Shown one piece after another: positions 1,961-31,699 of a DNA stretch of 64,000 nt. The notes beneath the pieces were generated by a model. It had not been told where the DNA came from, searched no databases, and saw only the letters and a list, made by a program, of their open reading frames with translations. The stretch is from Escherichia coli (lineage in GTDB: Bacteria > Pseudomonadota > Gammaproteobacteria > Enterobacterales > Enterobacteriaceae), in assembly GCF_041248615.1 (NCBI RefSeq), contig NZ_CP158426.1. The stretch is one strand, 5' to 3'. The number at the start of each line of letters is the position of its first letter. Within the stretch, counting starts at the first letter, position 1. A program made the translations under genes and the position numbers.

Positions 1961-3466
1961 TCATGGCATGGCCATGAGCATTTTCACGTCCGCATCACCG
2001 TCTGCTGACGTCTGTGCCACGCCACCCTGTACCGCTGCCGGTGAATGGTTCGCCATGAAATGTTCAAACATGGCGGTTGTGGATGCAGAGACCGGTTCTG
2101 CCTTACCTGATCCCGCAGCCAGCACAGCCCGGGCGCTCTCCACTGTCATTCCCGGGCAGGCAGCCAGCTGTTCAGCCTGCGCCTCAGCCCCTTTTGCCTC
2201 ATCCAGTGCCATGATCTGATCACGGAGTGATGGTCCGGCATCCGCCTGCGGTGAAGCAGCCAGGATCGGGCGGGCTTTTTCCACCGTCATCTCCGGCATC
2301 GCCGCCAGCGTTGCCGCCAGTTGTTCACGACCGTTCGCTTCTTCACACGCCATAATGCGATCGGCTTCACTCTGCGTGGATGCCACCGGCTGCTGCGGTG
2401 CCGCCGCGGCCAGAATCGCCCGGGCCTGTTCAACGCTCATGCCCTGTTGTCCTGCCAGCATCGTGGCAAGCTGTTCACGTCCTTTCGCTTCCTGGCATGT
2501 CAGGATCCCCATCACTCGCTGGTTCTCCTGCGCGGCGGCTTCCGTTGCAGTTAATTGCGGCATAGTGCCTCCTCTGACATTACTGTTCAGCGCCGTGGCC
2601 ATCACACTGATGGCATCCGACGCATTGATTAATTCATCCGCCAGCCCGGCCTCAATGCCGGACTGACCTTCAAAAACGGCAGCCTCTGTTCCCGTGACGG
2701 CATCAACAGACAGACCGGTATACATCGCCACTTTTTCGGCAAACATCCGGCGCGCCGCATCAATCCGCTGCTGCATGTCCTGGCGAACCTCTGCCGGCAA
2801 CGCTTCAAACTGATTGCCATCCACCTTGTGCGCCCCTGAGTAAATCAGCGTGATATCCACACCGGCCTGCGCCAGATGACCGGCATAGCTGACATGGCTC
2901 ATCATCACGCCAATGGAGCCGATACGGGATGTCTGGGTAACCAGCCGTCGGGAGCAGGCCGACGCCAGCAGCATGGCTGCAGAACAGGCCGTGTCATTGC
3001 ACAGTGCCCAGACCGGCTTCTGCTGACGGAGGCGGTAAATCATGTCAGCGCAGTCAAACGCGCCGGCGGCCTGCCCGCCCGGACTGTCAATGTCCAGCAG
3101 TACGCCCCGCACCTGGCTATCCGCCATTGCCTGCTGAAGACAGGCGACAATGCCGTCATAGCCTGTCATTCCGGAAAATGGCCGCATACCACCCAGCCGG
3201 TGCACCAGCGTGCCGGTCACCGGCAGTACAGCAATACCGTTCACCACCCGGTAAACACGGGCCGGTCGTTTACCTCCGGCCATGTACTCGTCCGTTTCAG
3301 CCAGCATTCCGGGAGCATCAAACTGTACCTGCTGTTGTGGTACCGAAAGACTTGCTGCCCCCATCTCGCGCCCGAGCGCGCAAAAGAAAACCCGCGCATA
3401 GGCGGGCTCCAGAAGCAGCGGTTCATTGAATGCTGCGGCAATAATGTGTGAAAGATTACGTCTCAC
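1961..3466 (-). CDS. head maturation protease / scaffold (lambda gpC with in-frame Nu3-like C-terminal part; ClpP/S49 peptidase fold)
   Basis: 501-aa ORF between portal and D; S49-type core; C-terminal third contains three ~45-aa tandem repeats. Confidence 0.8.
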   Translation of the reverse strand: MRRNLSHIIAAAFNEPLLLEPAYARVFFCALGREMGAASLSVPQQQVQFDAPGMLAETDEYMAGGKRPARVYRVVNGIAVLPVTGTLVHRLGGMRPFSGMTGYDGIVACLQQAMADSQVRGVLLDIDSPGGQAAGAFDCADMIYRLRQQKPVWALCNDTACSAAMLLASACSRRLVTQTSRIGSIGVMMSHVSYAGHLAQAGVDITLIYSGAHKVDGNQFEALPAEVRQDMQQRIDAARRMFAEKVAMYTGLSVDAVTGTEAAVFEGQSGIEAGLADELINASDAISVMATALNSNVRGGTMPQLTATEAAAQENQRVMGILTCQEAKGREQLATMLAGQQGMSVEQARAILAAAAPQQPVASTQSEADRIMACEEANGREQLAATLAAMPEMTVEKARPILAASPQADAGPSLRDQIMALDEAKGAEAQAEQLAACPGMTVESARAVLAAGSGKAEPVSASTTAMFEHFMANHSPAAVQGGVAQTSADGDADVKMLMAMP

Positions 3467-5048
3467 GTGGTGTTGTCTCCTCTTCCGGCCTACGACTCTC
3501 CGCTATCTGCTGCTGATACGCCTGCTCTATCCACACCGGACGTGAGAGTCCGGCTTTTTGCCGCTCAGCAGATTCCCTGACCTGCTGGCGGAAAATGTCC
3601 TGATAATCCTCGCCCATCAGCGCCAGCTCTTTCTCATACGTGCTCAGTCCGGCCTCAATGCGCATCACTGATTCCTGGACTTCCTTGAGCCCGTCAATGG
3701 CCATTCTTCCGGCACCAATCCACTCTGCCCGTGACCAGGCTGATCGCGCCTGATAAAAATCAAAACGTGCCCGTGGCGGACGAATAATCCCCCGAAGAAG
3801 TGCCTCTTCCAGCCAGCAGGAAAACATCTGCGTGGCCAGCCGGGCCGCAATAAATTTTCGCCGCCCCATAAAATAGCGCCACGACTCATTGGCGGAGGCG
3901 CGGGCACTTGAGTAACTGACCTTCGAGTAATCACGGGACAACTGTTCGTAGGAAACGCCAAGACCGGCGGCGATATACCGCAGCAGCGCCTGTTCAAGCG
4001 CAGAAAATCCATTGTCTGAATCCTGCGCAGTCTGTAGTTTCAGATCATCACCAGGGAAAAGGTGCGGAATTTTGACACCGCCCAGTGTCACGTTATTCGT
4101 GTCATACCAGCTGGAAAACTTCTCCAGAATATTAATAAGCGGATTATCCTTCTGCTCCTGTGGCGCGCCGGCGATATATTCAAAGGCCTTTTCGGTATCA
4201 AGTTCACTTTCAATCGTCGCTGCATACATCGCCTTCACTATGGCCGACTGAAGCTGTGTTGCCTGCAGGGAATCGAGCATCTTCAGCCGTTCCATGACGC
4301 TGTAAAACTGATTAGCCCCACGGGTCTGCCCGTCCTCCACCGGCTCGAAAATATGCAGCATGGCCGGACGCCCGGTGGGAAGTTCACGCGGGATCCGTTC
4401 CCATCGTCCACTACCAGAGAACGGAAAATCATCCTCACAGATATGGTACGCGACGGCACGGCCATATCGATCGACCTCCACACCGGCCCGCAGAAAACGG
4501 TTCCCCATACCGTGTCCAGGCGTGTCCACCCGTTTCGGACTCACGGCTTTAAAACGCGTACGGAATAACTGCGTGGTTTCCGTATCCCAGACCGGCTGCA
4601 CAAAGATTTCGCCGTTAAACGCATGAACGCCCACACCTTCACGGATAAATTCCGTGAACGTGCGTTTTCCTTCCACGTCGATCTCGCCAAACATCCCTTC
4701 GGCGTATTCCGACCAGGCCGCCTCCACCTCATCGACAAAGCTTTTTGCTGCGGTCTCCCGCATCCCCAGCCAGCGCCAGTTCGGACGGTAGCTGATCAGA
4801 AACATATGCCCGACAATGTGATCCTTATGCAGAGCCACCGCATTAGCCGCTATTCCGTTATTGCGCACCAGATCATCTGCCCGGGCATTCCCCAGACGCA
4901 ACGCGGGCAGCAGGGCCGCATCGGCACTCTGCGCCGGTGGCAACCACTCAGCCATTTGCCCGCCAAATCCTGCACCGCCCCCGTTGTAGCTGAGACTCTC
5001 ACGAAGCGGAACGCCGTTCACATCAATCAGGACAGGCGTTCGTTTCAT
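3456..5048 (-). CDS. portal protein (lambda gpB family)
   Basis: ORF 3456-5078; probable start MKRTPVLI at 5048, forming an ATGA overlap with the W stop; lambda gpB-like motifs (GANQFYSVME, LQSAIVKAMYAATIESELD, RMAIDGLKEVQE). Confidence 0.85.
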   Translation of the reverse strand: MKRTPVLIDVNGVPLRESLSYNGGGAGFGGQMAEWLPPAQSADAALLPALRLGNARADDLVRNNGIAANAVALHKDHIVGHMFLISYRPNWRWLGMRETAAKSFVDEVEAAWSEYAEGMFGEIDVEGKRTFTEFIREGVGVHAFNGEIFVQPVWDTETTQLFRTRFKAVSPKRVDTPGHGMGNRFLRAGVEVDRYGRAVAYHICEDDFPFSGSGRWERIPRELPTGRPAMLHIFEPVEDGQTRGANQFYSVMERLKMLDSLQATQLQSAIVKAMYAATIESELDTEKAFEYIAGAPQEQKDNPLINILEKFSSWYDTNNVTLGGVKIPHLFPGDDLKLQTAQDSDNGFSALEQALLRYIAAGLGVSYEQLSRDYSKVSYSSARASANESWRYFMGRRKFIAARLATQMFSCWLEEALLRGIIRPPRARFDFYQARSAWSRAEWIGAGRMAIDGLKEVQESVMRIEAGLSTYEKELALMGEDYQDIFRQQVRESAERQKAGLSRPVWIEQAYQQQIAESRRPEEETTPRET

Positions 5049-9444: not shown

Positions 9445-9738
9445 ATGAAAAAAATGCTACTCGCTACTGCGCTGGCCCTGCTTATTACAGGATGTGCTCA
9501 ACAGACGTTTACTGTTCAAAACAAACCGGCAGCAGTAGCACCAAAGGAAACCATCACCCATCATTTCTTCGTTTCTGGAATTGGGCAGAAGAAAACTGTC
9601 GATGCAGCCAAAATTTGTGGCGGCGCAGAAAATGTTGTTAAAACAGAAACCCAGCAAACATTCGTAAATGGATTGCTCGGTTTTATTACTTTAGGCATTT
9701 ATACTCCGCTGGAAGCGCGTGTGTATTGCTCACAATAA
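9445..9738 (+). CDS. bor: Bor lipoprotein (serum-resistance family)
   Basis: 97-aa ORF MKKMLLATALALLITGCAQQ..., matches lambda Bor as I recall it. Confidence 0.9.
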   Translation: MKKMLLATALALLITGCAQQTFTVQNKPAAVAPKETITHHFFVSGIGQKKTVDAAKICGGAENVVKTETQQTFVNGLLGFITLGIYTPLEARVYCSQ

Positions 9739-11528: not shown

Positions 11529-12611
11529 ATGAAAAAATTAACAGTGGCAATTTCTGCTGTAGCTGCATCAGTACTGATGGCGATGTCTGCTCAGGCAGCT
11601 GAAATTTATAATAAAGACAGTAACAAGCTGGATCTATACGGGAAAGTTAATGCCAAGCACTACTTCTCCTCTAATGATGCAGATGATGGTGATACTACTT
11701 ATGCCCGTCTTGGCTTCAAAGGTGAAACCCAAATCAACGATCAACTGACTGGTTTCGGTCAGTGGGAATATGAATTCAAAGGCAACCGTGCTGAATCTCA
11801 AGGTTCTTCCAAAGACAAAACCCGTCTTGCATTTGCAGGCCTGAAATTTGGTGATTACGGCTCAATCGATTACGGCCGTAACTACGGTGTAGCATACGAC
11901 ATCGGTGCGTGGACTGACGTTCTGCCAGAATTCGGTGGTGATACCTGGACCCAAACAGATGTGTTCATGACTGGTCGCACTACTGGTGTTGCAACTTATC
12001 GTAACAACGACTTCTTTGGTCTGGTCGATGGCCTGAACTTTGCTGCTCAGTATCAGGGTAAAAATGACCGCACTGACGTAACTGAAGCCAATGGTGATGG
12101 TTTCGGTTTCTCCACTACTTATGAGTATGAAGGATTCGGCGTGGGTGCAACCTATGCTAAATCAGATCGCACTGACGGTCAGGTCGCCTATGGTAAGAGC
12201 AAATTCAATGCCTCCGGCAAAAATGCGGAAGTATGGGCTGCAGGCCTGAAATATGATGCGAACAATATCTATCTGGCTACCACATATTCTGAAACTCAGA
12301 ATATGACCGTTTTTGGTAATAACCATATTGCAAACAAAGCACAAAACTTTGAAGCAGTAGCACAATATCAGTTTGACTTCGGTCTGCGTCCATCTGTTGC
12401 TTACCTTCAGTCAAAAGGTAAAGACCTTGGTGTTCATGGTGACCGAGACTTAGTCAAGTATGTCGATGTCGGTGCTACTTACTACTTTAATAAAAACATG
12501 TCCACTTTTGTTGATTACAAAATCAACTTAATTGACGATAGTAAGTTTACCAAAACAGCTGGTATTGATACCGACGACATCGTCGCTGTAGGTCTGGTTT
12601 ATCAGTTCTAA
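11529..12611 (+). CDS. OmpC/OmpF-family outer-membrane porin (prophage moron, NmpC/Lc type)
   Basis: ORF 11469-12611; start [23 protein letters not shown] at 11529 (signal peptide); porin motifs and C-terminal VGLVYQF; preceded by ~350 bp of AT-rich DNA; opposite in orientation to the late operon. Confidence 0.85.
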
Positions 12612-18910: not shown

Positions 18911-19468
18911 TTGGCAAAAATAGATGATTATCAGCCAAGCCAAGTAGAAGTTGATAAAGTACTTTATTGTAAAAAAATAGTTAACTTTTCTGGCGTTAAA
19001 TGGAAACAGAAACCAAGTCGCTCTGATATGTGGCTACAAGCCCATATCATCCCCTTGGATGAGGATTGTATACCTATACAAGGGCTAAAGTTTGAACTGA
19101 AATGGAAACCAGATCAGGATTCAGAACCTGATGACCCGATTTCTTACCCTAAAATAAATATTATTGCTTTCTATCATAACAAGAGGGTTTTCGCGGTAGA
19201 TACCTATCACTTTGACAAACACACGAATAGTTACAAGGTCGATCATCCGAAGTACCAAGATATCATTTACGGTGCTCACTACCATGTATACTATGAAGAA
19301 GCTGGATACTATAGTGATAGAATAGCGTTTCCAATCGAAGATGACATAAACCCAGATGACCTGGTAGGGTATTGGAATTACTTCTGTAAACATCTGAACA
19401 TAACTTACTCTGGGAGAATACCTTTACCGCTTGAAGATGAGTCGGGGCAAATGGGGTTTGGAATATGA
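18911..19468 (+). CDS. hypothetical protein A of the cI-proximal insert (rexA position)
   Basis: 185-aa ORF, probable TTG start, AT-rich codon usage, no family recognised, no obvious TM segments. Confidence 0.6.
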   Translation: MAKIDDYQPSQVEVDKVLYCKKIVNFSGVKWKQKPSRSDMWLQAHIIPLDEDCIPIQGLKFELKWKPDQDSEPDDPISYPKINIIAFYHNKRVFAVDTYHFDKHTNSYKVDHPKYQDIIYGAHYHVYYEEAGYYSDRIAFPIEDDINPDDLVGYWNYFCKHLNITYSGRIPLPLEDESGQMGFGI

Positions 19469-20217
19469 TGTGCTCAACAGTGATCTCACAACTAGGTTTC
19501 GAATGCCATCCAATAGGCAAGACCTTGAGAATTATCAGTCCATTCACTTACTGTGATGATGGAGAGCATGTCGGTGCCTTTATCCGTGAAGTCAATGGTA
19601 GGTATTTAGTTAGTGACAGATGCGATGCCTTAATGAATATGGAGGCAAGAGGGATCTCGCTTACCAAAAAACGACTTGATGAGATACGACAATTACTGCT
19701 TAAAGAAGGCGCAGAACTCAATGCTCGAGGAGAAATCATTGCTTGGGCAACAGAAAAGGATGTCGGTGCGATTACATCGAACATAATTAGAGCTGGTATA
19801 CTCGCATCAACTTTGTCGTTAGACTGGTATCAGCCAGTTCAAGCTGAAAAGTTTGAAAGTATGGTTATTGATTATCTATATCACACAGAGCTTAGAGACG
19901 CACTTTCTCTTCGTGAAAACGTATATGGCTTGAGTGGACATCAAATTACCGTCCCTGTAACAATAAAAACCGACATACCTAAATACGTTTTTACATCAAG
20001 CGTGAAACACGGAGGAAGCTGGAATAGTGCTTACTCATTGCTTGGGAAACTAATTGATCTTAAAGCTTCAAGTGAGGAGTATAACAACAGATTTGTTGTT
20101 ATAGACAGCGAAGCAATTGGTGATCAAATGCAACAACTCTCCTTACTCTTCCATGAATCAAGCCAAGTTCTACCATTCTCCAAAAGAGAGACTTGGGTTA
20201 AGAGACTTGCAGCATAA
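19465..20217 (+). CDS. hypothetical protein B of the cI-proximal insert (rexB position)
   Basis: 250-aa ORF with ATGATG start overlapping the stop of ORF A (ATGA overlap); AT-rich; no family recognised. Confidence 0.65.
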   Translation: MMCSTVISQLGFECHPIGKTLRIISPFTYCDDGEHVGAFIREVNGRYLVSDRCDALMNMEARGISLTKKRLDEIRQLLLKEGAELNARGEIIAWATEKDVGAITSNIIRAGILASTLSLDWYQPVQAEKFESMVIDYLYHTELRDALSLRENVYGLSGHQITVPVTIKTDIPKYVFTSSVKHGGSWNSAYSLLGKLIDLKASSEEYNNRFVVIDSEAIGDQMQQLSLLFHESSQVLPFSKRETWVKRLAA

Positions 20218-20942: not shown

Positions 20943-21524
20943 TTACTTGTTTTTGCCATGCTTATCCTGAGCGATAAGTTCATCCATAAGGCTGTCTGCC
21001 TTCCCGGCAAACCTAATGTAGCACTCATGTCTATAGCTTTCAGGGATAACGAAACGGTCGGTATCAGGATATCCAACAGCAGGAGGCCTTCGAACGAGGA
21101 GTCCTTTTTTGAGCAATGAAATTGATTCATGAGCGCCCTTTTCCGTTTGTAGCTGGTTATTAGCGGCTACAGCGAATGCCAAATACGCTCTTTCTCCAAG
21201 AGTTAACGAATCAAACAAATCTTGCACATATTTTTCTTCTTTAGATTTGCGCTTCTGAGCAGCGAATACCTCAATTCTTTCAGTCACAGCGTGATAAGCG
21301 GAATTAACAACGCCGTTAAGCACATAGCTAACGCAAAACAACAGGATGTAATACATCCAGTAATGAGGAAGGATTTCTGGACTATGCAGGTTTATCCATT
21401 CTTTTACGCTTACCGGCATAACAATAATCAATATGATCAGGATGATTAGCATATGAATCAACTGTTTAAGTGTCATTCCTTGCAGGAAAAAATGCATTAG
21501 TTCCTGCCACCATGAGTTGTTCAT
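20943..21524 (-). CDS. sieB: superinfection exclusion protein SieB-like (membrane protein)
   Basis: 193-aa ORF MNNSWWQELMHFFLQGMTLKQLIHMLIILIILIIVMPV with TM segments, antisense immediately downstream of N. Confidence 0.6.
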   Translation of the reverse strand: MNNSWWQELMHFFLQGMTLKQLIHMLIILIILIIVMPVSVKEWINLHSPEILPHYWMYYILLFCVSYVLNGVVNSAYHAVTERIEVFAAQKRKSKEEKYVQDLFDSLTLGERAYLAFAVAANNQLQTEKGAHESISLLKKGLLVRRPPAVGYPDTDRFVIPESYRHECYIRFAGKADSLMDELIAQDKHGKNK

Positions 21525-21667
21525 CGGCGTTTCTCTTTTGCTCTCTGTAGGGGTGAATAGAGTTTATCCGATTTCTCGTTGTAGGGGTACACGAGAACCA
21601 CCGAGCCTGATGTGGTTAAAAGACAGGCACAATCTTTACTACCGCAATCCACTATTTAAGGTGATAT

Positions 21668-21754
21668 ATGGAAGAAGAATTTGAAGAGTTCGAAGAGCAT
21701 CCTCAAGATGTGATGGAACAATACCAGGACTATCCGTATGACTACGACTATTGA
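21668..21754 (+). CDS. 28-aa highly acidic mini-ORF overlapping the ral start
   Basis: MEEEFEEFEEHPQDVMEQYQDYPYDYDY; AAGG Shine-Dalgarno-like element upstream; below ORF-track cutoff. Confidence 0.25.
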   Translation: MEEEFEEFEEHPQDVMEQYQDYPYDYDY

Positions 21755-21938
21755 TACAAATCAATGGTGTGGACAATTCAAACGATGCAATGGATGCAAG
21801 CTGCAATCGGAATGCATGGTTAAGCCTGAAGAAATGTTTCCTGTAATGGAAGATGGGAAATATGTCGATAAATGGGCAATACGAACGACGGCAATGATTG
21901 CCAGAGAACTTGGTAAACAGAACAACAAAGCTGCCTGA
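21738..21938 (+). CDS. ral: restriction alleviation protein Ral
   Basis: 66-aa ORF MTTTIDTNQWCGQFKRCNGCKLQSEC..., lambda Ral. Confidence 0.8.
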   Translation: MTTTIDTNQWCGQFKRCNGCKLQSECMVKPEEMFPVMEDGKYVDKWAIRTTAMIARELGKQNNKAA

Positions 21939-22164
21939 TAGTGGCCTTTATTTTTGGCATAAATAACAGAATAAACACTGCACTGTGTATTCATTCCAAC
22001 GAGTGAATACACGGAGCAATGTCGCTCGTAACTAAACAGGAGCCGACTTGTTCTGATTGTTGGAAATCTTCTTTGCCCTCCAGTGTGAGGGCTTTTTTAT
22101 ATGCATACCAATAACGCTTCACTCGAGGCGTTTTCGTTATGCAATCAAATATAAGGAGTTACCC

Positions 22165-22299
22165 ATGATGCACTTTCAGCTCGCGGGTAGCGGCGTCATG
22201 TCCGCTTTCTACCCGCACGAATCTGAATTATCACGCAGAGTTAAACAATTAATCAGAGCAGCAAAGAAACAACTGGAGGCGTTATGCGCAATGAAATAG
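22165..22299 (+). CDS. CIII-like small protein (candidate FtsH inhibitor)
   Basis: 44-aa ORF MMHFQLAGSGVMSAFYPHESELSRRVKQL with AAGGAG 6 nt upstream; loosely resembles lambda CIII. Confidence 0.4.
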   Translation: MMHFQLAGSGVMSAFYPHESELSRRVKQLIRAAKKQLEALCAMK

Positions 22300-22436
22300 C
22301 CATTAATCACCAGATGCTTCGTGCTGCACAGAACAAAGCAGTAATAGCCAGATTTATTGGTGATTCAAAAATGTGGCTTGAAGCAAATAAAGCGATGAAA
22401 TCAGCTATCAACCTTCCGTGGTATCGCAGGAAATGA
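22284..22436 (+). CDS. Kil-like small protein
   Basis: 50-aa ORF MRNEIAINHQMLRAAQNKAVIARFIGDSKMWLEAN...; GGAGG upstream; FIGD.KM motif resembles lambda Kil from memory. Confidence 0.4.
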   Translation: MRNEIAINHQMLRAAQNKAVIARFIGDSKMWLEANKAMKSAINLPWYRRK

Positions 22437-22517
22437 GTTTTACAGATAACTGGTCAGACGAAGAATTCATTCGTCAGATGAAAGAAATGCTCAATCAGCA
22501 CAAAGAACAGGAGAAAG

Positions 22518-22829
22518 ATGATGATTCTGACTCTGAATGATAAGCGTGAAATATCGCAAATAATCGCAAGTTTTACTGATGAAGATTACGAACGAATCAA
22601 CAGTGAAGTTGATCGCCTCTGCAAACGTTGCGACCCAATAAGCGAAATGCTTCGCTCATATAAACCAGATGAACACACTAAGGACGCTATCGACTGGCTG
22701 GAAGATGATGACTGTAACTATCAGGAAAAAGCCGCTGAATGGTTCTGGGATGCAATAACCGAAAGAGTTAAGGCTGAATATGCCTTCGCAATATTCAAAC
22801 GCAGACACATTTATGGAGAAGCAGCATGA
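22518..22829 (+). CDS. hypothetical acidic protein, overlapping the recT start
   Basis: 103-aa ORF; stop overlaps the recT start; no family assigned. Confidence 0.5.
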   Translation: MMILTLNDKREISQIIASFTDEDYERINSEVDRLCKRCDPISEMLRSYKPDEHTKDAIDWLEDDDCNYQEKAAEWFWDAITERVKAEYAFAIFKRRHIYGEAA

Positions 22830-23737
22830 GCAATATCGTTGAATTCGTTAAACAGCAGGAGCAGTTATTCTGCGGGGCATTGACTGAACAGACGGTGACA
22901 TGGGCTAAGGAAAGCCAGTTTGCAATTCAGTATTTCCAGAAAAATGATTACCTGGCTAAAACAGCACTGGCAAATCCAACCAGCGCACAGAACGCCATCA
23001 TCAATGTTGCGGCGATCGGTATCACCTTAAACCCGGCTAGCAAACTGGCTTATCTGGTTCCGCGCGACGGCATGGTTTGCCTTGATATCAGCTATATGGG
23101 ATTGCTACATATTGCAATGGAGTCTGGTGTTATCTCATGGGGTCAGGCAAAGCTTGTTCATGCTAACGATACTTATGAGTCAAACGGACTTGATAAAGCA
23201 CCAACCCATAAATACAACGCCTTCGGTGATCGTGGCGATATCGTTGGTGTTTACTGCACAGTTAAGACGCCAGCAGGTGATTATCTAACGGAAGAGATGA
23301 GTCTGGCTGAAATTGAGGCTGTAAGGAAAACAAGCAAGGCGGCATTCAGCGATAAAGGACCATGGGTAAATCACTGGAATGAGATGGCGCGAAAGACGGT
23401 CGTAAAGCGTGCAAGCAAGTATTGGCCTAAGGCATCACGTCTTGATAGTGCTATTCACGTACTAAACGAAGAAGAAGGTGTATGGACTGAACCAGTTATG
23501 CCTCACAAATCAGAGGAAGATATCCGCGAAGATGAACGGAAACGCCAGCAGGAAATAACGGATAAAGCACAACTTCTTTGTGATGAAATGGCTCAGGCTG
23601 AAAACATGGATGATTTGAAGAGATATTTTGCAGAAGCATATCGCCTGACATCTGGAATGAAATTGCAGCAGAACATACAAGCCATTTACATAGAATGCAA
23701 AGCGAAACTGGAGGTTGCCAGTGAGCAAACTATATGA
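22826..23737 (+). CDS. recT: RecT-family single-strand annealing recombinase
   Basis: 303-aa ORF with GPWVNHWNEMARKTVVKRASKYWP, paralleling the E. coli RecT motif. Confidence 0.8.
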   Translation: MSNIVEFVKQQEQLFCGALTEQTVTWAKESQFAIQYFQKNDYLAKTALANPTSAQNAIINVAAIGITLNPASKLAYLVPRDGMVCLDISYMGLLHIAMESGVISWGQAKLVHANDTYESNGLDKAPTHKYNAFGDRGDIVGVYCTVKTPAGDYLTEEMSLAEIEAVRKTSKAAFSDKGPWVNHWNEMARKTVVKRASKYWPKASRLDSAIHVLNEEEGVWTEPVMPHKSEEDIREDERKRQQEITDKAQLLCDEMAQAENMDDLKRYFAEAYRLTSGMKLQQNIQAIYIECKAKLEVASEQTI

Positions 23738-24203
23738 AATTGCCAATGAATACGCAAAATTGATGGATTCAGATTTAGAACCAGAGATGATTGCTGACAC
23801 AATAGAAGGCATGGAAGGAGAATTTACCGATAAAATAGAACAACTTCTTTCCGTCATTAAAAATGAATCTGGTTATGCCGAACGCCTCAAGGAAGAGGCA
23901 AAGTCACTAAATGAGCGAGCCGCAGTAATTCAAAACAAGATTGACAGCATCAAATCATATATAGCGTCATCGCTTGAAATGGTTGGAAAGAAAAATATTC
24001 GAGCAGGTATTCACCAGGTAACAATCCGCAAACCGTCAGAAACTGTAGAAATCATCGACTCAAGCGCCCTTCCTCCTGAATACGTTGAGTTCGAAACGAC
24101 AATTAAAGCCGACAAACTGGCAATCAAACACCAACTAAAAGCAGGAATAAATATCCCCGGTGCTCAACTCAAAGTTGGAAAACCTTCACTTCTTATCAAA
24201 TAA
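23715..24203 (+). CDS. hypothetical phage protein (possibly siphovirus Gp157-like, often next to recT)
   Basis: 162-aa ORF in operon context; family call from memory only. Confidence 0.4.
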   Translation: MPVSKLYEIANEYAKLMDSDLEPEMIADTIEGMEGEFTDKIEQLLSVIKNESGYAERLKEEAKSLNERAAVIQNKIDSIKSYIASSLEMVGKKNIRAGIHQVTIRKPSETVEIIDSSALPPEYVEFETTIKADKLAIKHQLKAGINIPGAQLKVGKPSLLIK

Positions 24204-24214
24204 CGGTATCGCCT

Positions 24215-24529
24215 ATGAAAAAGACTCCATGGGAGAAATGGGAAGTCGATTTCTTGCGCGAGGTAGCGGCGACAATGCCAGTTGAAGTTATCGCAGAAAA
24301 ACTGGAAAGGACTGAAAAAGCAGTAATGGCGAAAGCAACAAGGATTGGCGCTGACATTGTTAGCCGACTTCGTGGAAGACGATGGACAAGAGCCGAAGTA
24401 TCACTTTTCGGTAAGTTCTCAGCAGAAGAAATAGCAATTGCAACCTGCCGCTCAATTTATTCAGTAAGAGCTATGCGATACAAGCTAAAAAAACTCGATG
24501 AAGAAAGAGCAGGCATACGAATAAATTAA
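24215..24529 (+). CDS. hypothetical protein
   Basis: 104-aa ORF in the early-left operon. Confidence 0.5.
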   Translation: MKKTPWEKWEVDFLREVAATMPVEVIAEKLERTEKAVMAKATRIGADIVSRLRGRRWTRAEVSLFGKFSAEEIAIATCRSIYSVRAMRYKLKKLDEERAGIRIN

Positions 24530-24545
24530 CATGGAGTAATTAACA

Positions 24546-24827
24546 ATGAAGCTAAACATCGACCTCGGAAAATACGTTATTACCGGAACCAAACACGACC
24601 TGATTCTTAGTGAAAGAGGAATTATCAAAGAAGGCGAGAATGCAGGGAAAGAAACACTAAGCCGTATCGGTTATTACAGCAAGTTTGAGCATCTGGTTAA
24701 AGAGTTATGCAACCGTGAAATCCTGTTATCTCAGGCGCAGACGCTACAGGATATTCAGCAGCATATCGAGACTTTAGGTATGTCACTTAGCATGGCTATT
24801 GACCAGTTAGTGGAGAGTAAATCATGA
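24546..24827 (+). CDS. hypothetical protein
   Basis: 93-aa ORF in the early-left operon. Confidence 0.5.
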
Positions 24828-24984
24828 GAGGACTTGCATACAATCCCGGAATTCTTCCGGCAGAAATGATTATTCGCCAACGCGTAAAGCCAATGCCATC
24901 GAGAGAGGAATTGCTTAAGAGAAATTCTTTTCCATCAGTGAATCAAAACAAATATCTGAATGCGATGTGGCGGAGTGGGAAGAA

Positions 24985-25416
24985 ATGAAACAAATGTCAC
25001 TAATTGAGATGGATGGTTTTCTGAAAGGTAAATGCATCCCAAGTGATTTAAAGGTTAACGAAACAAACGCTGAATATCTGGTGCGTAAATTTGCTGAAGC
25101 GGAGGCCAAGTGCGCGGCGCTGGCAGCGGAGAATGCGGGGCTGAAGTCTGGCGCTATGGGCGAAATCAAGGTTATCAACCGTGGAGGGCAGGCATATTGC
25201 GTAAAAGATGGAGTGCAAGTTAATCCCATGTATGCAAGAGGGTGGAATGACTATCGCGCAAAGTCTCTGCAATCAGACACCCAAGCCACCGATGCTTTCC
25301 TGGCTGAAGTACGGGCGCAGGGCGTGGAGATGTTTGCTGAGTGCGCATACACACTTGAACATCATGATCACGCAGTAGCCTTCGCCGCTGAGCTTCGCAA
25401 AGGAGGCAACCAGTGA
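24985..25416 (+). CDS. hypothetical protein
   Basis: ORF 24967-25416; likely ATG start at 24985 ([11 protein letters not shown]...). Confidence 0.5.
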
Positions 25417-25958
25417 GTGTAACGGTTGAAAAGATTGATGTGTTGTCATTCGTTATAACCGGTGCAGAGCGACTAGATCCGGTTCGAGTGATGATTGAAA
25501 ACTACGAACCTGGTAAGGGAAGAATCACCATCACCTGCTACGGAAAGGCGTGGACTGCGGCTTGGTTTGCTATGGGCGGTGATGATGTGCAGACGTTCAT
25601 TAAGCGGGTCAGCAACGAGTATCTAATCGGCTATTTCGACCCACAACTGCGAAGCACGGTCGACGATGACAACGATGCAAATCTGCTTTTCGTGAAGTCA
25701 GAAATCATAAAGTTACGAAGAGAGAGAGAAATAGACGCCGTACTGGCTCGCGAAATGTGGGACGAGGCGGAAAACGCCGATGACGTAAAAGAAAGCTGCT
25801 GCTGTTTCGGCGTCGGTAACAAACTACTGAATCTCTTTGGTGATGATCCGTGGTATGCCGACTGGCCAACGGTACCAAACCCGAAATACCAGTATCTGGA
25901 ACGCGTACTTAATGCAGTGAGAGACGGTCTTAAGCAAATAGAGAAGGTGGAACCATGA
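25413..25958 (+). CDS. hypothetical protein
   Basis: 181-aa ORF, GTG start with AGGAGG 7 nt upstream; start overlaps the previous stop. Confidence 0.55.
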   Translation: MSVTVEKIDVLSFVITGAERLDPVRVMIENYEPGKGRITITCYGKAWTAAWFAMGGDDVQTFIKRVSNEYLIGYFDPQLRSTVDDDNDANLLFVKSEIIKLRREREIDAVLAREMWDEAENADDVKESCCCFGVGNKLLNLFGDDPWYADWPTVPNPKYQYLERVLNAVRDGLKQIEKVEP

Positions 25959-26254
25959 CTGTATGTCTTATTGATAAACGTCGACGTGGGCAACAAATAC
26001 CATCTGTTGAAATGCCGAATCACACATGGTTTTGCGTACTTGATATCGATGGCATGGATAAGTTTGTTGACACTCGTCATTACTGCGATACCGCAACAGC
26101 TACTCCGGCGAAAGCAAAGAAAATGGCTGCTCTGATAGAAAACTGGACTCCACCTGATGGTTGGTGCAATGGGAATGATCGAGATTGGCACGAAAAAATG
26201 AAGGGCTATATCTGCGATTTTTTACGTAAATGCAACGGATTCAGGGTGATGTGA
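25955..26254 (+). CDS. hypothetical protein
   Basis: 99-aa ORF; ATGA overlap with the previous ORF. Confidence 0.5.
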   Translation: MTVCLIDKRRRGQQIPSVEMPNHTWFCVLDIDGMDKFVDTRHYCDTATATPAKAKKMAALIENWTPPDGWCNGNDRDWHEKMKGYICDFLRKCNGFRVM

Positions 26255-26255
26255 C

Positions 26256-26888
26256 ATGAGCAAGATTGACTATCAGGCACTGCGTGAAGCGGCAGAGCGT
26301 GCAATTCCGGCAATGGAACGCCTGTTAATGTTGCCAGCTGATGATGATTTGTTAAGTGAACAGGAACTTAAAGATTACGGTGTGGATATTGATGCGCTCA
26401 ACGCCTTCAAATTTCTGACCGGACCAGAAACCGTGCTGGCGCTGCTGGATGAACGGGAAAGAAACCAGCAATACATAAAACGCCGCGATCAGGAGAACGA
26501 GGATATTGCGCTAACGGTAGGGAAACTGCGTGTTGAGCTTGAGGAAGCAAAATCAAAACTCAACGAGCAACGCGAGTATTACGAAGGTGTTATCTCGGAT
26601 GGGAGTAAGCGTATTGCTGAACTGGAAGCACGGGAAATAAAACCAGCCAAAGGTGAAGTTCTTGTCGTTGTTTCTGGTTTTACTGGTTGCGGAAAAAGCG
26701 CCATTGCCGGGGAAATAGAAATCGCGATGAAGGCTATTGGTGTACCGGTTAAGTGGACTAATGGCGATGCAGAAAAGCGCATGACTGGCGCTGACTGGCT
26801 GACAGCGATTGAGATGTACAAACCAACTGTGCGCATCGTGGAAGTTAATGTGCCACGCGCCGCTGGCATTCGCATCAAAGGAGACTGA
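26256..26888 (+). CDS. hypothetical protein with predicted coiled-coil middle region
   Basis: 210-aa ORF. Confidence 0.5.
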   Translation: MSKIDYQALREAAERAIPAMERLLMLPADDDLLSEQELKDYGVDIDALNAFKFLTGPETVLALLDERERNQQYIKRRDQENEDIALTVGKLRVELEEAKSKLNEQREYYEGVISDGSKRIAELEAREIKPAKGEVLVVVSGFTGCGKSAIAGEIEIAMKAIGVPVKWTNGDAEKRMTGADWLTAIEMYKPTVRIVEVNVPRAAGIRIKGD

Positions 26889-26889
26889 T

Positions 26890-27087
26890 ATGGATAAAAA
26901 CACCACTGCTTACTGGAATCTGTCACTTGATACCGAATGCCCAAAATGCGGTCACAATTTCGATCTGCTTTGCGATCCAGATTTCTGGGAATTTTCTGGA
27001 GCAAAACAGGCATGTGAAGAAATAAAAGGTTACGAAACATGCTGTCCAGAATGTAACCATGAATTTAAAACAGATTTTGTGTATTGA
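26890..27087 (+). CDS. small zinc-ribbon-like protein
   Basis: 65-aa ORF MDKNTTAYWNL... with CPKCGH and CCPECNH cysteine pairs. Confidence 0.45.
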   Translation: MDKNTTAYWNLSLDTECPKCGHNFDLLCDPDFWEFSGAKQACEEIKGYETCCPECNHEFKTDFVY

Positions 27088-27097
27088 GGCATAACGA

Positions 27098-28285
27098 ATG
27101 ACCACTTTTACTAAAGAACAATTAATAGAGATGATTAAGCGCAATATAACGGTTATGGATCGTTATCCTGATTTAGTAACTGCACAAATGGATCTGGAAG
27201 TATACAAAATTGCGCTGGCATCACTGGAAGCAGAACCAGTTGCTTATATTTTCAAACATCCGGCCGGGAAATTATTCTGGGCTTTAACGGATGAAAGCAA
27301 TAAAGAGCAACCGGACGTTATTCCTGTTTATGCTGACTCACCTGCGCCGGTTGTGCCGGATGAAATAGACGTAAACGATGTGCCAAGGGCGGTGACATAT
27401 TTCAAGACACACAGAGATTGTTACGCAGATGGCTGGAACGCCTGCCGCGCCGCCATGCTTCAGTCCGGAAACTTTCGGGAAAACAAGAATTCGTCAACCA
27501 ATAATTTTCGGGAAATCGCGGAAACGTCAACCAACTATCCGGTAATTCCTAGTGAGGTGTTGTCCGCAATCCAGAAGGTTGCCAAGATTCGTGCCGATTT
27601 CGATGATTTTGACGGTGACAGGCGAGGTATCGGTGATTGTCTGGATGAGGCTGAGCAAGAGCTTATCGTTACCATTAACAAATATGCCAGTCAGTTGGCA
27701 GCAGAACCTATAGCGCCTAATGACGTTCGAGAGCAGCAGACAGCCGTTCCGCCAGTTCCAGAAATACAGGCTGATGTCGCGCAAGCAATTGAAAATCTCA
27801 AGCAGAAGTTAGTGGAATGCAATCGCTATAACTACTGTGCAGATGCAGTTAAAGGCGTAGAGGATGCCTGCCGTGCTGTTAGCTATAGCCAAGCCGACAA
27901 TCAGCCAGCATCTGGCAACCAGGCTGCCGAATCCAATCGCGATAATGAGTGGACTGGCAATCCTGATATTGATAACGCCATCATCATGCTCGACCGCATA
28001 GATACGCTGGAAAATTGCGATGATGACCGTATTGAGGCTGTTAAGGCTGTTTTGCGTAGACTGGCTGGCAACTATCCGGTAACTCCGGATAGTTGGATAA
28101 GCTGTAGTGAGCGAATGCCCGCTCAAGATGATTGGATTTTAATTTATTCAAAGCACGGCGAGTATATGGCAGGACAGGTACAAGGGGAATACGTGGAGTT
28201 GAGCGACGGCACTTTATCGTGGTTAGGGAACGCCTTGTACTGGATGCCTCTACCAGAACCGCCGAAGGAGGTTAACCGTGGCTAA
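27098..28285 (+). CDS. hypothetical phage protein with C-terminal DUF551-like domain
   Basis: 395-aa ORF; C-terminal WISCSERMPAQDDWILIYSKHGEYMAG typical of DUF551 from memory. Confidence 0.5.
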   Translation: MTTFTKEQLIEMIKRNITVMDRYPDLVTAQMDLEVYKIALASLEAEPVAYIFKHPAGKLFWALTDESNKEQPDVIPVYADSPAPVVPDEIDVNDVPRAVTYFKTHRDCYADGWNACRAAMLQSGNFRENKNSSTNNFREIAETSTNYPVIPSEVLSAIQKVAKIRADFDDFDGDRRGIGDCLDEAEQELIVTINKYASQLAAEPIAPNDVREQQTAVPPVPEIQADVAQAIENLKQKLVECNRYNYCADAVKGVEDACRAVSYSQADNQPASGNQAAESNRDNEWTGNPDIDNAIIMLDRIDTLENCDDDRIEAVKAVLRRLAGNYPVTPDSWISCSERMPAQDDWILIYSKHGEYMAGQVQGEYVELSDGTLSWLGNALYWMPLPEPPKEVNRG

Positions 28286-28562
28286 CCTGCAACTTGCCGT
28301 CAAAGGTGAATACTTCGATGCCATGATTCGCGGAGAGAAAACGGAAGAGTATCGCCTGTGTAATGACTACTGGAAAAAGCGCCTCGTTAACCGTAAGCAT
28401 GACCGCCTGATTATCACAAAGGGATATCCGAAGCGCGACGATTCCAGCCGCAGAGTTGATGTTCCGTATGACGGATATGAAGTGAAGACAATCACACATC
28501 CGCACTTCGGTGATAAACCGGTAAAGGTATACGCGATAAAGGTAAATATCGGCACTGAATAA
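28278..28562 (+). CDS. hypothetical protein
   Basis: 94-aa ORF. Confidence 0.5.
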   Translation: MANLQLAVKGEYFDAMIRGEKTEEYRLCNDYWKKRLVNRKHDRLIITKGYPKRDDSSRRVDVPYDGYEVKTITHPHFGDKPVKVYAIKVNIGTE

Positions 28563-28587
28563 CAATCCGCACAACACAAGGTCAAGA

Positions 28588-28827
28588 ATGTTCAGAGTGA
28601 TTTACCCTAACACCTGGTACGTCGACCACCACGGCACTCCCTGCAAAATCCTGCGTTCCACTCACAACAAAGCTCACTACATCCGAAAAGGCAGAACATG
28701 TATCGCCAGCATGTTCCGCTTTAATCATGACTTTGAACCTGTGAATAAAGCTGACGCAGATCGGATAGCTGAAGAGATCGAAACAGCAGAACACATTAAG
28801 AAGTTACGTGCCATACGCAGGAAATAG
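28588..28827 (+). CDS. hypothetical protein
   Basis: 79-aa ORF. Confidence 0.45.
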   Translation: MFRVIYPNTWYVDHHGTPCKILRSTHNKAHYIRKGRTCIASMFRFNHDFEPVNKADADRIAEEIETAEHIKKLRAIRRK

Positions 28828-28966
28828 AAAAATTGATAAATTCAATACTGCATTTCTCAGCATTAAATTTATCTCTATGACCAGTCAAGAGATGTACCTG
28901 CCATGAGCTTAATATCATGTCAGATATATCGGTCACAAACTCCCTCAGCAGCTAAGAGGAGGACAA

Positions 28967-29203
28967 ATGTCTCGACTAATCACTTTACAGGACTGGGCTA
29001 AAGAAGAATTTGGGGACTTAGCACCAAGTGAGCGAGTTCTGAAAAAATACGCGCAAGGGAAAATGATGGCCCCACCCGCTATAAAAGTTGGTCGCTACTG
29101 GATGATTGACCGAAATTCCCGTTTTGTAGGAACGCTTGCAGAACCGCAACTCCCAATAAACGCAAACCCAAAACTCCAACGGATAATCGCTGATGGCTGC
29201 TAG
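28967..29203 (+). CDS. xis: excisionase
   Basis: 78-aa ORF overlapping the int start; Xis/AlpA-like KVGRYWMI motif. Confidence 0.75.
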   Translation: MSRLITLQDWAKEEFGDLAPSERVLKKYAQGKMMAPPAIKVGRYWMIDRNSRFVGTLAEPQLPINANPKLQRIIADGC

Positions 29204-30335
29204 ACCCCGATCTCACAAAATCTCTATACCCAATTTATATTGCAAATTAGATAAGCGAACCGGAAAGGTATATTGGCAATACAAACATCCACTATCCGGT
29301 CGTTTTCATAGCTTAGGAACTGATGAGAATGAAGCAAAACAAGTTGCTACTGAAGCAAATACCATTATTGCTGAACAACGTACCCGACAAATATTAAGCG
29401 TCAATGAGCGTCTAGAAAGAATGAAAGGCAGGCGCTCAGACATTACGGTGACAGAATGGCTTGATAAATATATTTCTATCCAGGAGGACAGGCTGCAACA
29501 TAATGAACTAAGACCCAACTCCTATCGGCAAAAAGGCAAACCCATTCGTCTTTTCCGTGAGCATTGTGGAATGCAACACCTCAAGGATATTACCGCACTT
29601 GATATTGCCGAAATAATTGATGCTGTAAAGGCTGAAGGTCATAACAGGATGGCGCAAGTCGTGAGAATGGTGTTGATCGACGTCTTCAAAGAAGCACAAC
29701 ACGCAGGACATGTTCCGCCAGGATTTAACCCAGCGCAGGCAACAAAACAACCGCGAAATCGAGTAAACCGCCAAAGATTATCACTGCCCGAATGGCAGGC
29801 AATATTTGACAGCGTAAGCAGACGGCAGCCCTATTTAAAATGCGGGATGCTACTTGCTCTTGTCACTGGACAACGTTTAGGCGATATCTGCAATTTGAAA
29901 TTCTCTGATATCTGGGACGACATGTTGCACATTACTCAGGAAAAAACCGGTTCAAAACTTGCTATTCCGCTTAACCTGAAATGCGATGCTCTGAATATTA
30001 CCCTTCGTGAAGTTATATCTCAGTGCAGGGATGCTGTTGTTAGTAAATATCTGGTCCATTACCGTCACACTACCTCTCAAGCAAACAGAGGAGACCAGGT
30101 GTCTGCAAATACTCTTACAACGGCTTTTAAAAAGGCCAGGGAAAAATGTGGCATAAAATGGGAGCCAGGAACTGCGCCCACATTTCATGAGCAGCGATCT
30201 CTGTCAGAACGGTTATATCGGGAACAGGGTCTGGATACGCAAAAGTTGTTAGGTCATAAATCCAGAAAAATGACCGACCGATACAATGATGATCGTGGTA
30301 AAGACTGGATTATCGTAGATATCAAAACAGCATAG
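29193..30335 (+). CDS. int: tyrosine integrase (e14/phage 21 icd-targeting type)
   Basis: 380-aa ORF with C-terminal catalytic region (HEQRSL...LGHKSRKMTDRY); adjacent to the icd 3' end. Confidence 0.9.
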   Translation: MAARPRSHKISIPNLYCKLDKRTGKVYWQYKHPLSGRFHSLGTDENEAKQVATEANTIIAEQRTRQILSVNERLERMKGRRSDITVTEWLDKYISIQEDRLQHNELRPNSYRQKGKPIRLFREHCGMQHLKDITALDIAEIIDAVKAEGHNRMAQVVRMVLIDVFKEAQHAGHVPPGFNPAQATKQPRNRVNRQRLSLPEWQAIFDSVSRRQPYLKCGMLLALVTGQRLGDICNLKFSDIWDDMLHITQEKTGSKLAIPLNLKCDALNITLREVISQCRDAVVSKYLVHYRHTTSQANRGDQVSANTLTTAFKKAREKCGIKWEPGTAPTFHEQRSLSERLYREQGLDTQKLLGHKSRKMTDRYNDDRGKDWIIVDIKTA

Positions 30336-30345
30336 AAAATAGCCA

Positions 30346-30382
30346 GTTTTGGGGAAGGGTTTTGGGGAAAGTTTTGGGGAAG
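30346..30382 (+). repeat. three tandem 12-13-bp direct repeats GTTTTGGGGAAG next to int
   Basis: units start at 30346, 30359 and 30371, between the int stop and the icd terminator; candidate arm-type Int binding sites. Confidence 0.5.
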
Positions 30383-30402
30383 ATTTTACATCATCATAAA
30401 AC

Positions 30403-30425
30403 AACGGGCGTGTTATACGCCCGTT
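30403..30425 (-). terminator. icd intrinsic terminator
   Basis: stem ACGGGCG/CGCCCGT with 7-nt loop; on the minus strand it is followed by TTGTTTTATGATG. Confidence 0.7.
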
Positions 30426-30448
30426 ACAATATTTAACACATGTAGTGA

Positions 30449-31699
30449 TTACATATTCTTGATGATCGCATCACCAAACTCTGAACATTTCAGCAGCTTA
30501 GCGCCTTCCATCAGACGTTCGAAGTCATAGGTTACGGTCTTCGCATTGATTGCGCCTTCCATACCTTTAACAATCAGGTCTGCGGCTTCAGTCCAGCCCA
30601 TATGGCGCAGCATCATCTCAGCGGAGAGAATAATAGAGCCAGGGTTAACTTTGTCCTGACCGGCATATTTCGGCGCAGTACCGTGGGTGGCTTCAAACAG
30701 GGCGCATTCGTCACCGATGTTTGCGCCTGGGGCGATACCGATACCGCCGACCTGTGCAGCCAGAGCGTCAGAAATGTAGTCACCGTTCAGGTTCATACAG
30801 GCGATAACATCATATTCAGCCGGACGCAGCAGGATCTGTTGCAGGAATGCATCAGCAATCACATCTTTAATGACGATCTCTTTGCCGGTATTCGGGTTTT
30901 TAACTTTCAGCCACGGGCCGCCGTCGATCAGTTCACCGCCAAACTCTTCACGCGCCAGCTGGTAGCCCCAGTCTTTAAACGCGCCTTCGGTGAACTTCAT
31001 GATGTTGCCTTTGTGCACCAGGGTCACAGAGTCACGATCGTTAGCAATTGCGTATTCGATCGCGGCACGGACCAGACGTTTGGTGCCTTCTTCAGAACAC
31101 GGCTTAATACCGATACCGCAATGTTCCGGGAAGCGAATTTTCTTCACGCCCATCTCTTCACGCAGGAATTTAATCACTTTCTCGGCGTCGGCAGAGTCAG
31201 CTTTCCATTCGATACCCGCATAAATGTCTTCCGAGTTTTCACGGAAGATAACCATATCGGTCAGTTCAGGATGTTTAACCGGGCTTGGGGTGCCCTGATA
31301 GTAACGTACCGGACGCAGGCAGATGTAGAGATCCAGTTCCTGGCGCAGGGCAACGTTCAGAGAACGAATACCGCCACCAACCGGAGTGGTCAGAGGGCCT
31401 TTAATGGCAACGCGATATTCACGAATCAGATCAAGGGTTTCAGCAGGCAGCCAGACATCCTGACCATAAACCTGTGTGGATTTTTCACCGGTGTAAATTT
31501 CCATCCAGGAGATTTTACGCTCGCCTTTATAGGCTTTCTCGACTGCAGCGTCGACCACTTTCAGCATGGCTGGGGTTACATCTACACCGATTCCATCACC
31601 TTCAATGTAAGGGATAATCGGATTTTCAGGAACGTTGAGTTTGCCGTTTTGCAGGGTGATCTTCTTGCCTTGTGCCGGAACAACTACTTTACTTTCCAT
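30449..31699 (-). CDS. icd: isocitrate dehydrogenase (NADP), with prophage-associated 3' end
   Basis: 416-aa ORF, full-length Icd; C-terminal residues ...[20 protein letters not shown]. Confidence 0.95.

Follow-up and report, generated by a model that had tools for sequence, protein, structure and literature searches.

A block of 11 small genes lies between the recombination genes and the xis-int pair of a lambda-like prophage in Escherichia coli (NCBI RefSeq assembly GCF_041248615.1, contig NZ_CP158426.1). The DNA that was analyzed, referred to here as the window, is 64,000 nucleotides (nt) long, and the block occupies positions 24215 to 28827 of its plus strand. The listing of open reading frames (ORFs) and a scripted analysis of the junctions between them show that about 99% of the block is coding, with 53 nt of non-coding sequence in all. 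At four junctions the genes overlap by 4 nt (ATGA or GTGA), at another by 8 nt, and at two a single nucleotide separates them; across the block junctions, Shine-Dalgarno sequences are embedded in the final codons of the preceding gene. A first-pass annotation made from the sequence had described this region as a densely packed, same-strand run of about ten ORFs between recT and xis, joined by start/stop overlaps. The density, the single orientation, and the overlaps (five in number) all hold, while the count is 11 rather than ten, and the left boundary was drawn slightly loosely, as the immediate neighbor is a gene of the Gp157 family that itself follows recT.

Gene content and prophage setting

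The surroundings of the block are those of a complete phage. According to the RefSeq annotation, the genes run in the order Q-like antiterminator, nin genes, P and O, cII, cro, a cI-like repressor, N, sieB, ral, and kil, followed by a 103-residue ORF, recT, the Gp157-family gene, the block, xis, and int, with the host icd gene directly after; the lysis, head, and tail genes farther upstream are of lambda type and complete. Because of this gene order and the complete late region, the prophage appears to be intact and located at the icd attachment site. With recombination genes on one side, xis-int on the other, and N on the same strand, the block has the position of the exo-xis and ea regions of related phages, and the order recT, Gp157, block, xis, int bears out the earlier placement among the early-left accessory genes of a lambdoid phage. 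We consider it likely, with a probability of roughly 0.8, that these 11 genes make up the accessory, distal portion of the early-left (pL) operon in a complete lambda-like prophage at icd, and that they correspond to the exo-xis region of lambda and the ea region of P22.

Several lines of evidence show that the block ORFs are genuine. All 11 matched a PHROG family, with E values from 1e-23 to 1e-88, although nearly all of these families carry the label "unknown function", and homologues of the block genes are kept across genera. In the same search, every minus-strand ORF of at least 100 residues in the block but one was without a family match. Since the matches on the plus strand are complete, the homologues extend across genera, and the opposite strand is mostly matchless, the block ORFs are taken as real genes rather than chance reading frames, and the minus-strand ORFs were rejected as genes. 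The one minus-strand ORF with a match, 101 residues long (28272-28577) and antisense to o94, resembles phrog_20945 (E = 2e-54), a family that was probably built from wrong-strand (shadow-ORF) annotations of the o94 locus in phage genomes. Two start codons were set by the N-termini of homologues: that of o143, in preference to an upstream GTG, and that of o65, in preference to an upstream TTG.

The first-pass annotation had also stated that none of the ORFs could be assigned from sequence. This was too pessimistic. Six of the products (o93, o54, o99, o210, o395, and o79) score above the Pfam gathering threshold, while o94 (ASCH) and o104 (HTH_12) fall short of theirs; all 11 belong to PHROG families, and several share 96-98% identity with named genes of other phages. 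A family can thus be given for every ORF and a function for few, which falls short of all the ORFs belonging to families with known roles. Structure searches, proposed at the outset alongside profile searches and made here for o181 and the C-terminal module of o210, gave no fold match.

Few signals other than coding sequence were found. Promoter-like sites in the stretch scanned (21500-30500) were fewer than in shuffled sequences, and plus-strand terminator-like matches inside the block were minimal 5-bp stems only. Near the block, non-coding sequence of any size is confined to the 139 nt that separate o79 from xis; this interval contains an AT-rich inverted repeat (16-bp stem, 28835-28873), flagged as a minus-strand terminator-like site. 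No RNA family was matched in an Rfam search of the whole window, so no counterpart was found of the small RNA of the exo-xis region.

In composition the block is mosaic, its genes and domains being exchangeable modules taken from the pool of enterobacterial phages. When used as a query, the 4.6-kb block was 100% identical to part of the E. coli NRZ14408 chromosome (NZ_LT599825.1). The whole block was present in one of the 5426 complete E. coli genomes searched, while parts of it were present in 4206, which does not support the unusualness that the first-pass annotation had implied. Likewise, 593 phage records contain parts of the block and none covers 80% or more of it, with near-identical copies of pieces in HK140, HK446, P22-like, P1/P7-like, and Shiga toxin (Stx) phages. 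The breakpoints in similarity coincide with the boundaries of genes (query positions 328, 609, 1730, 2043, 4057-4098, and ~4350) and also with conserved motifs within genes, namely ATDAFLAE in o143 and the core of Ea22. As a set, o210-o65-o395-o94 is also found in E. coli E5, where it is placed between replication genes and the terminase.

Table 1. Genes of the block and its boundaries (positions in the window)
Feature	Position	Strand	Description
recT	22826-23737	+	Left boundary; RefSeq annotation
Gp157-family gene	23715-24203	+	Left boundary; RefSeq annotation; Pfam Sipho_Gp157, E = 1e-37
o104	24215-24529	+	104 residues, tandem helix-turn-helix (by sequence); first gene past the RecT/Gp157 recombination module
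o93	24546-24827	+	DUF5405 protein
o54	24824-24988	+	DUF2737 protein
o143	24985-25416	+	EaE/Oad2-family protein
o181	25413-25958	+	181 residues, conserved protein
o99	25955-26254	+	DUF7739 protein
o210	26256-26888	+	Ead/Ea22-family protein, C-terminal domain swapped
o210 C-terminal module	26646-26870	+	About 72 residues, portable, Walker-A-like GxTGxGKS
o65	26890-27087	+	65 residues, zinc-ribbon-like, two CPxC knuckles
o395	27098-28285	+	EaA-like mosaic, DUF551 at C-terminus
o94	28278-28562	+	Small ASCH-like (PUA-like) protein
o79	28588-28827	+	DUF4222 protein
xis	28967-29203	+	Right boundary; ORF list and RefSeq annotation
int	29193-30335	+	Right boundary; ORF list and RefSeq annotation
icd	30449-31699	-	Host gene after int; ORF list and RefSeq annotation

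The EaE/Oad2-like and Ea22-like genes

Two genes of the block, o143 and o210, give rise to specific ideas about function. The product of o143 is 62% identical to a Lederbergvirus protein named EaE, 41% identical to HK446 gp27 (E = 2e-33), and 34% identical to P22 EaE (E = 1.6e-8). HK446 gp27, known as Oad2, was recently reported to inhibit the P2 OLD nuclease by binding OLD directly and stopping its activation as a tetramer; the same study related Oad2 to P22 EaE, described it as being fused at times to HNH or EaD/Ea22 domains, and termed the region adjacent to the recombination genes a hotspot for anti-defence genes (bioRxiv 10.64898/2026.07.10.737580; July 2026 preprint). What o143 has in common with Oad2 is an N-terminal stretch of 36 residues (~90% identical), a coiled-coil segment, an internal motif, and the tail LRKGGNQ. 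The gene context is also conserved: the order DUF5405-DUF2737-EaE is common to the block, HK446, HK140, and the Lederbergvirus, and P22 retains orf56 (DUF2737) followed by eaE. The suggestion that the region harbors anti-defence functions, made in the first-pass annotation for the run as a whole, is thereby upheld for one ORF. A search of o143 against PDB sequences gave nothing significant. The variable center of the protein (residues ~52-77, 25138-25215), just past the coiled coil, shows a weak resemblance to the foldon trimerization unit of T4 fibritin (PDB 1aa0; phmmer E = 0.34), and the same segment is present in the EaE of a Lederbergvirus.

The Gp157-family gene located upstream overlaps the end of recT, and its counterpart in HK140 is annotated as "Mu Gam-like end protection". 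If the Gp157-family protein were to antagonize RecBCD, its action would be of the sort to which OLD or Gabija responds, and this would suit the presence nearby of an Oad2-like gene.

The second gene, o210, encodes a homologue of Ea22, as seen in the match of residues 2-124 to Pfam Ead_Ea22 (PF13935; 130.4 bits against a cut-off of 27, E = 9e-38). Over residues 1-115 of lambda Ea22, comprising the N-terminus and the coiled coil, identity is 61%, and the core is 75% identical to P22 EaD over 44 residues. Similarity to lambda Ea22 stops at residue 138 and returns only in the last seven residues (AGIRIKG[DE]). Ea22 has been described as an early-expressed, tetrameric, pro-lysogenic protein with a C-terminal domain that varies among phages (PMC10834534, PMC7093339); the lambda-type C-terminal domain, for which there is a nuclear magnetic resonance (NMR) structure, is not found in o210, where a different module stands in its place.

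This C-terminal module is widely dispersed. It was found in 446 clusters at 50% identity, situated at either the N- or the C-terminus of proteins of 110-623 residues, and in 27 phage records including phiV10, D6, and jumbo phages of Burkholderia and Ralstonia; it was not found in lambda or in any Stx-converting phage record of the collection searched. Its motif in o210 is GFTGCGKS, which matches the Walker A consensus GxxxxGK[ST]; across 39 sequences of 49-93% identity, the G, T, G, G, K, and S of this motif do not vary. The module also has a conserved "V+IVE" stretch that might represent a Walker-B-like element. Profile matches to Pfam and PDB were sub-significant (E = 0.003 to 0.1) and confined to the Walker-A region. 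The AlphaFold2 (AF2) model of the module, with a mean confidence (pLDDT) of 75.8, has no beta-sheet, Foldseek returned no match at E < 3.9, a search of o210 against PDB sequences gave nothing significant, and a Pfam scan of ten long proteins bearing the module revealed no partner domains. On the combined evidence of the search for representatives, the alignment, the AF2 model, and Foldseek, the motif is conserved and the fold unconfirmed; assignment as a P-loop NTPase was not adopted, and the module is P-loop-like by motif only.

The ends of several of these proteins coincide with translation signals. The terminal "+G[ED]" tripeptide of Ea22, described previously as being of unexplained significance (PMC7093339), overlaps in o210 with the Shine-Dalgarno sequence of the next coupled gene (26871-26892: AAAGGAGACTGATATG). 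Similarly, the tail LRKGGNQ of o143 (25396-25415) and the tail PKEVNRG of o395 (28262-28280) carry the Shine-Dalgarno sequences for o181 and o94, respectively. The tail of lambda Ea22 may be vestigial, since in lambda no gene follows directly after ea22.

The remaining genes of the block and nearby cassettes

The first gene of the block, o104, matched phrog_11492 (E = 5e-23) and phrog_323, "transcriptional regulator, D5-like" (E = 3e-20), while its score with Pfam HTH_12 (20.7 bits) is just below the cut-off of 21.4. Relatives at 55-63% identity show Sigma70_r4_2 at both repeat positions, with scores of 21-31.5 bits against a cut-off of 25.7 and one of them reaching 31.5. The protein is thus predicted to consist of two helix-turn-helix (HTH) repeats resembling region 4 of sigma-70, which are best seen in these relatives. 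The gene occupies the slot that P22 fills with abc1 and abc2; BLASTP produced no alignment between o104 and P22 Abc1, so the idea of an Abc1 analogue draws on position and HTH character. No significant match was obtained when o104, o395, and o94 were searched against PDB sequences.

The next two genes are close copies of HK446 genes. The o93 protein scores 26.2 bits with Pfam DUF5405 (cut-off 21.6), matches phrog_154 (E = 2e-31), and is 98% identical to HK446 gp29; the PHROG label "replication initiation protein" was not adopted, as nothing else backs it. The o54 protein matches Pfam DUF2737 (E = 2.6e-31) and is 96% identical to HK446 gp28 and 75% identical to P22 orf56. Beyond o143, o181 is common in the Enterobacteriaceae, often on contigs of ~100-110 kb; its predicted model is confident and matched no known fold, and a profile search against PDB sequences found nothing significant. 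The o99 protein matches Pfam DUF7739 (E = 1.2e-20) and phrog_1239 (E = 7e-55).

The small protein o65 had been singled out at the start as a four-cysteine zinc-ribbon mini-protein, and the cysteines in question, C17, C20, C52, and C55, which form its two knuckles, are invariant in five homologues of 40-86% identity, while three other cysteines vary. It belongs to phrog_4173 (E = 9e-28), and its matches to Pfam zinc-ribbon, Rad50-hook, and YnfU models are all below cut-off. Homologues occur in phages of Klebsiella, Enterobacter, Erwinia, and Yersinia; in the temperate phages of Erwinia and Yersinia the gene is near xis and int, and it is also found in P22-like phages and in virulent Klebsiella Jedunaviruses, there just 5' of a helicase gene. 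Genes of the Lar family are found at this position in other genomes. Membership of o65 in the Lar restriction-alleviation family was considered and rejected, the NCBIfam Lar model being without a match and YnfU matching only weakly.

The longest gene, o395, was likewise read correctly as having a DUF551-like C-terminus (PF04448, residues 332-390, 42.6 bits against 22, E = 1.1e-10). The protein as a whole is a composite, with residues 1-123 matching phrog_5117, 111-261 matching phrog_14306, and 297-394 matching phrog_60. It is 71% identical to P7 Upf89.5/89.0 over residues 1-334 and 32-34% identical to P22 EaA at both ends; the relatives in P7 and Stx phages span 85-90% of its length. An intact copy of 393 residues is present in E. 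coli E5 (3342-4523 of the stretch examined), in an unrelated genome context. Both here and in E. coli E5, the RefSeq annotation pipeline (PGAP) records only a "partial" pseudogene fragment and a 56-residue ORF at this locus, which we read as an annotation gap concerning a putative intact gene and not as a pseudogene. The last two genes of the block are o94, which matches phrog_625 (E = 5e-49) and is named "ASCH domain-containing protein" in RefSeq with a Pfam ASCH score (PF04266, 15.5 bits) below the cut-off of 21.2, and o79, which matches phrog_285 and Pfam DUF4222 (PF13973, 62 bits against 27, E = 3.7e-17). At 90% identity or more, o79 is present in 2356 of the 5426 complete E. coli genomes (43%). 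Its family is that of RgdR, a regulator of enterohaemorrhagic E. coli (EHEC) (PMC10877973).

Other accessory genes are found elsewhere in the prophage. In the position of rexAB, right downstream of the cI-like repressor, are two plus-strand genes: the first (18911-19468) encodes 185 residues with weak matches to DUF6978 and PDC-M24A (E = 5e-4), and the second (19465-20217) encodes a DUF1828 protein of 250 residues that matched the PADLOC candidate defence family PDC-M24B (E = 4.7e-10). This pair is probably a defence moron expressed from the prophage. The late region contains iss, a bor-like gene for a serum-survival lipoprotein (NZ_LT599825.1 3117113-3117406, window ~9445-9738), and a porin gene annotated as ompC and resembling nmpC (NZ_LT599825.1 3119197-3120279, window ~11529-12611); the two adjoin the Q-like antiterminator and are typical lysogenic-conversion morons.

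Proposed role, alternatives, and comparison with known phages

If the block is indeed the distal part of the pL operon, it would be silent in the lysogen and, after infection or induction, would be read as one polycistronic mRNA under N antitermination. The 11 small genes would be translationally coupled through overlapping stop and start codons and through Shine-Dalgarno sequences inside the last codons of each preceding gene, and we infer that none of their products is essential and that they modulate events at the interface of phage and host soon after infection begins. The o143 protein would most likely bind and block an abortive-infection nuclease of the OLD type, with an ABC-ATPase and a TOPRIM domain, that would otherwise be triggered by the recombination and end-protection functions of the phage itself. 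Most likely, o210 would form a coiled-coil oligomer that biases the decision between lysis and lysogeny, and o104 would act as a DNA-binding tandem-HTH regulator. The others (o65, o181, o99, o93, o54, o395, o94, and o79) are placed at the level of family only.

A number of observations weigh against parts of this scheme. An HK75 homologue that is 54% identical to Oad2 reportedly does not inhibit P2 OLD (bioRxiv 10.64898/2026.07.10.737580), and o143 is more distant than this: a central portion of about 40 residues is unrelated to Oad2, and the protein is 32 residues shorter, lacking most of the C-terminal helical part. Given the 41% identity, the differing center, the shorter C-terminus, and the inactive HK75 homologue, inhibition of P2 OLD by o143 is not to be assumed. 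Because of the divergent center and an activity reported to be highly allele-specific, o143 is filed as a member of the EaE/Oad2 family for which the same kind of mechanism is proposed, the candidate target being a defence nuclease of the OLD type. The pro-lysogenic role of Ea22 may not transfer to o210, whose C-terminal domain is unlike any Ea22 domain that has been studied. In addition, PADLOC matched none of the 11 ORFs, and NCBIfam returned no named family. Six peptides from the block were also sought in the supplements of a screen of accessory genes (PMC12373910), and none was found there.

A bolder proposal combines the two lead genes. In it, one or more of the block products would directly and allele-specifically inhibit an abortive-infection nuclease of the host, the foremost candidate being o143, with a target among ABC-ATPase/TOPRIM enzymes of the OLD family, Gabija, or PARIS type other than the P2 OLD allele blocked by HK446 Oad2, and the 72-residue module of o210 would be a minimal Walker-A module, previously undescribed and common to the Burkholderia and Ralstonia jumbo phages, that couples nucleotide binding to a lysis-lysogeny function. 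This combination is offered tentatively, and the odds are against its being correct in full.

Other explanations of the block can be considered. It may be purely a cassette for tuning lysis and lysogeny, like the exo-xis region of lambda and Stx phages, which acts on host physiology or replication (compare YfdS and effects related to DnaA) without any role in anti-defence. The exo-xis genes and Ea22 are known to change lysogenization and induction (PMC7093339, PMC3824215), YfdS, which has DUF551, comes from a cluster whose overexpression inhibits the initiation of replication (PMC4776307), and RgdR, the DUF4222 relative of o79, is a regulator (PMC10877973). However, o143 falls in the family of an inhibitor of OLD that has been shown biochemically, and relatives of the block carry Abc2, Lar-family, and HNH genes at the same hotspot; for these reasons we regard a purely regulatory cassette as possible but doubtful.

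Decay of part of the block, with o395 as a fused or pseudogenized remnant of prophage cargo, might be suspected from the "partial" fragment annotated by PGAP in two genomes and from the patchwork of at least three PHROG modules in this protein. Against this, the frame is uninterrupted, starting 10 nt past o65 and overlapping o94 by 8 nt, the E. coli E5 copy is intact, the P7 and Stx relatives extend over most of the protein, and the rest of the prophage is complete, making decay unlikely. Less likely still is the notion that the block consists of "moron" genes, for lysogenic conversion or defence, whose expression from the prophage would protect its host. Defence systems are often held in prophage accessory regions, and the PDC-M24-like pair adjoins cI in this same prophage, but the block genes themselves drew no PADLOC match, are not accompanied by promoter-like sites above background or by strong flanking terminators, and are co-oriented and coupled within a pL operon that is repressed in the lysogen.

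As a whole, the block adds little to what is known: it is a further permutation of a familiar and highly mosaic accessory region, of a kind recognized for decades, and each of its genes has near-identical copies in the databases, although the full combination was seen in a single one of the complete E. coli genomes searched. Specific and testable hypotheses come only from the Oad2-like gene and the Walker-A mini-domain. In this respect o143 represents an Oad2-like allele that could be used for mapping the specificity of OLD-family inhibition, and o210 a variant of Ea22 with an uncharacterized mini-domain of wide distribution. Of further use, o65 appears to be a conserved zinc-ribbon early protein common to temperate and virulent phages, and o395 a gene that is systematically missed by the standard annotation pipeline.

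The reading of the block as a distal pL accessory region invites comparison with the equivalent regions of other phages. The ea region of P22 (orf56, eaE, orf45, eaF, eaD, eaI, eaA, eaG, and eaC, between abc2 and xis) has the same position in the pL operon, the same orientation, and similarly small, coupled genes. In contrast to P22, the block has no counterpart of eaF, eaI, eaG, or eaC; o104, o93, o181, o99, o65, o94, and o79 have no homologue in the P22 ea region at E < 0.01; and the recombination module is RecT/Gp157 rather than Erf/Abc. The exo-xis region of lambda and Stx phages (orf60a, orf63, orf61, ea22, and ea8.5) fills the same slot between the recombination genes and xis and is expressed early from pL, as we infer for the block. 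Only ea22 is common to both, and here the C-terminal domain of lambda Ea22 solved by NMR (PMC10834534) has been exchanged for the 72-residue Walker-A-like module. Individual block genes also resemble better-studied proteins at the level of sequence: o395 has DUF551 in common with YfdS of CPS-53, although this domain makes up only the last ~60 of its 395 residues, and o79 has DUF4222 in common with RgdR of EHEC, although the RGD tripeptide for which RgdR is named is absent from o79.

Close matches are found in the HK phages. In HK140, the early-left genes (gp42 to gp36) share ~96% DNA identity over o104, o93, o54, and the start of o143, with o104 matching the gp39 region at 96% and the gp36-39 region constituting the near-identical stretch. 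Past the EaE-like gene HK140 differs, having another Ea22 variant, other hypothetical proteins, and an AlpA-type xis, while its upstream order (ral, cIII/kil, a 103-residue ORF, recT, Gp157) is identical. In HK446, the genes for gp29, gp28, and gp27 match o93, o54, and o143 in identity and order, and they occupy the same position next to the recombination module.

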